Continued: a report generated by a model with database tools. The report concerns a stretch of 64,000 nt of DNA from Candidatus Omnitrophota bacterium (GTDB lineage Bacteria > Omnitrophota > Gorgyraeia > JAHJTE01), in the NCBI GenBank assembly GCA_018830005.1, contig JAHJTE010000001.1:193332-257331 (forward strand), written 5' to 3'; not shown here.

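Follow-up and report, generated by a model that had tools for sequence, protein, structure and literature searches.

Both window proteins that join a signal-peptidase-like domain to a PF14907 domain (50430-52205 and 56095-58347) have Cys at the nucleophile position of the signal-peptidase motif G-x-S-M-x-P (alignment A2). In the same alignment, Ser and Cys alternate at this position among homologues, while the His-Arg pair and the Asp are invariant. This pattern could point to a Cys-His variant of a Ser-protease fold. At the N terminus of the 750-aa fusion (56095-56250), ~25 residues contain five Cys, EVPCQDSKLSQLCCEYSDLLPCCNAL; this segment is missing in the aligned homologues.

The GT4 and radical SAM genes are duplicated in tandem as a unit of ~2.3 kb, and the DNA identity between the copies is 65-83% outside one patch. 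Within this patch of ~250 nt (46278-46520 vs 48609-48851), the two GT4 copies are 98-100% identical, which suggests a recent gene conversion between them. In the related locus L008, a group B radical SAM/SPASM enzyme is fused to a GT4 glycosyltransferase within a single 775-aa protein (7674-10001; L017 is the same).

The 136-aa metagenomic protein P0205 contains two leader-plus-core units back to back in one polypeptide (...KVKLNAEQAVLSCC... and ...RVRLNPEQAVLSCC...). P0205 is a class-1 precursor in a tandem, multi-core form.

In other phyla, gingipain-like Peptidase_C25 proteins of very large size that carry SdrD_B repeats precede the simple PqqD/rSAM/precursor/ScmC cassette (L025, 1-6297; L026, 1314-4568 and 12643-15103; L027, 3405-6602); the 64-kb window contains no Peptidase_C25/SdrD_B gene. 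In the window, the gene directly before rSAM1 (34954-36234) codes for a membrane protein of 426 aa that has a weak GDSL-lipase-like domain. Because other loci carry at this position either a PMT_2 glycosyltransferase or nothing comparable, this protein probably lies outside the conserved cassette. Just 5' of the island, the minus strand encodes a 444-aa B12-binding radical SAM enzyme (33403-34737), the best match of which, far sub-threshold, is the RiPP methyltransferase-type ApyD. In L002, L008, and L009, too, related B12-binding radical SAM genes lie close to the clusters.

Immediately 3' of the peptide cluster, an HD-domain protein (59428-60564) resembles c-di-GMP phosphodiesterases of the HD-GYP kind. 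Its gene is syntenically locked, with the pepcterm-type ATPase gene on one side and the Wza-like exporter gene on the other, both in the window and at the homologous sites of L008, L009, and L019.
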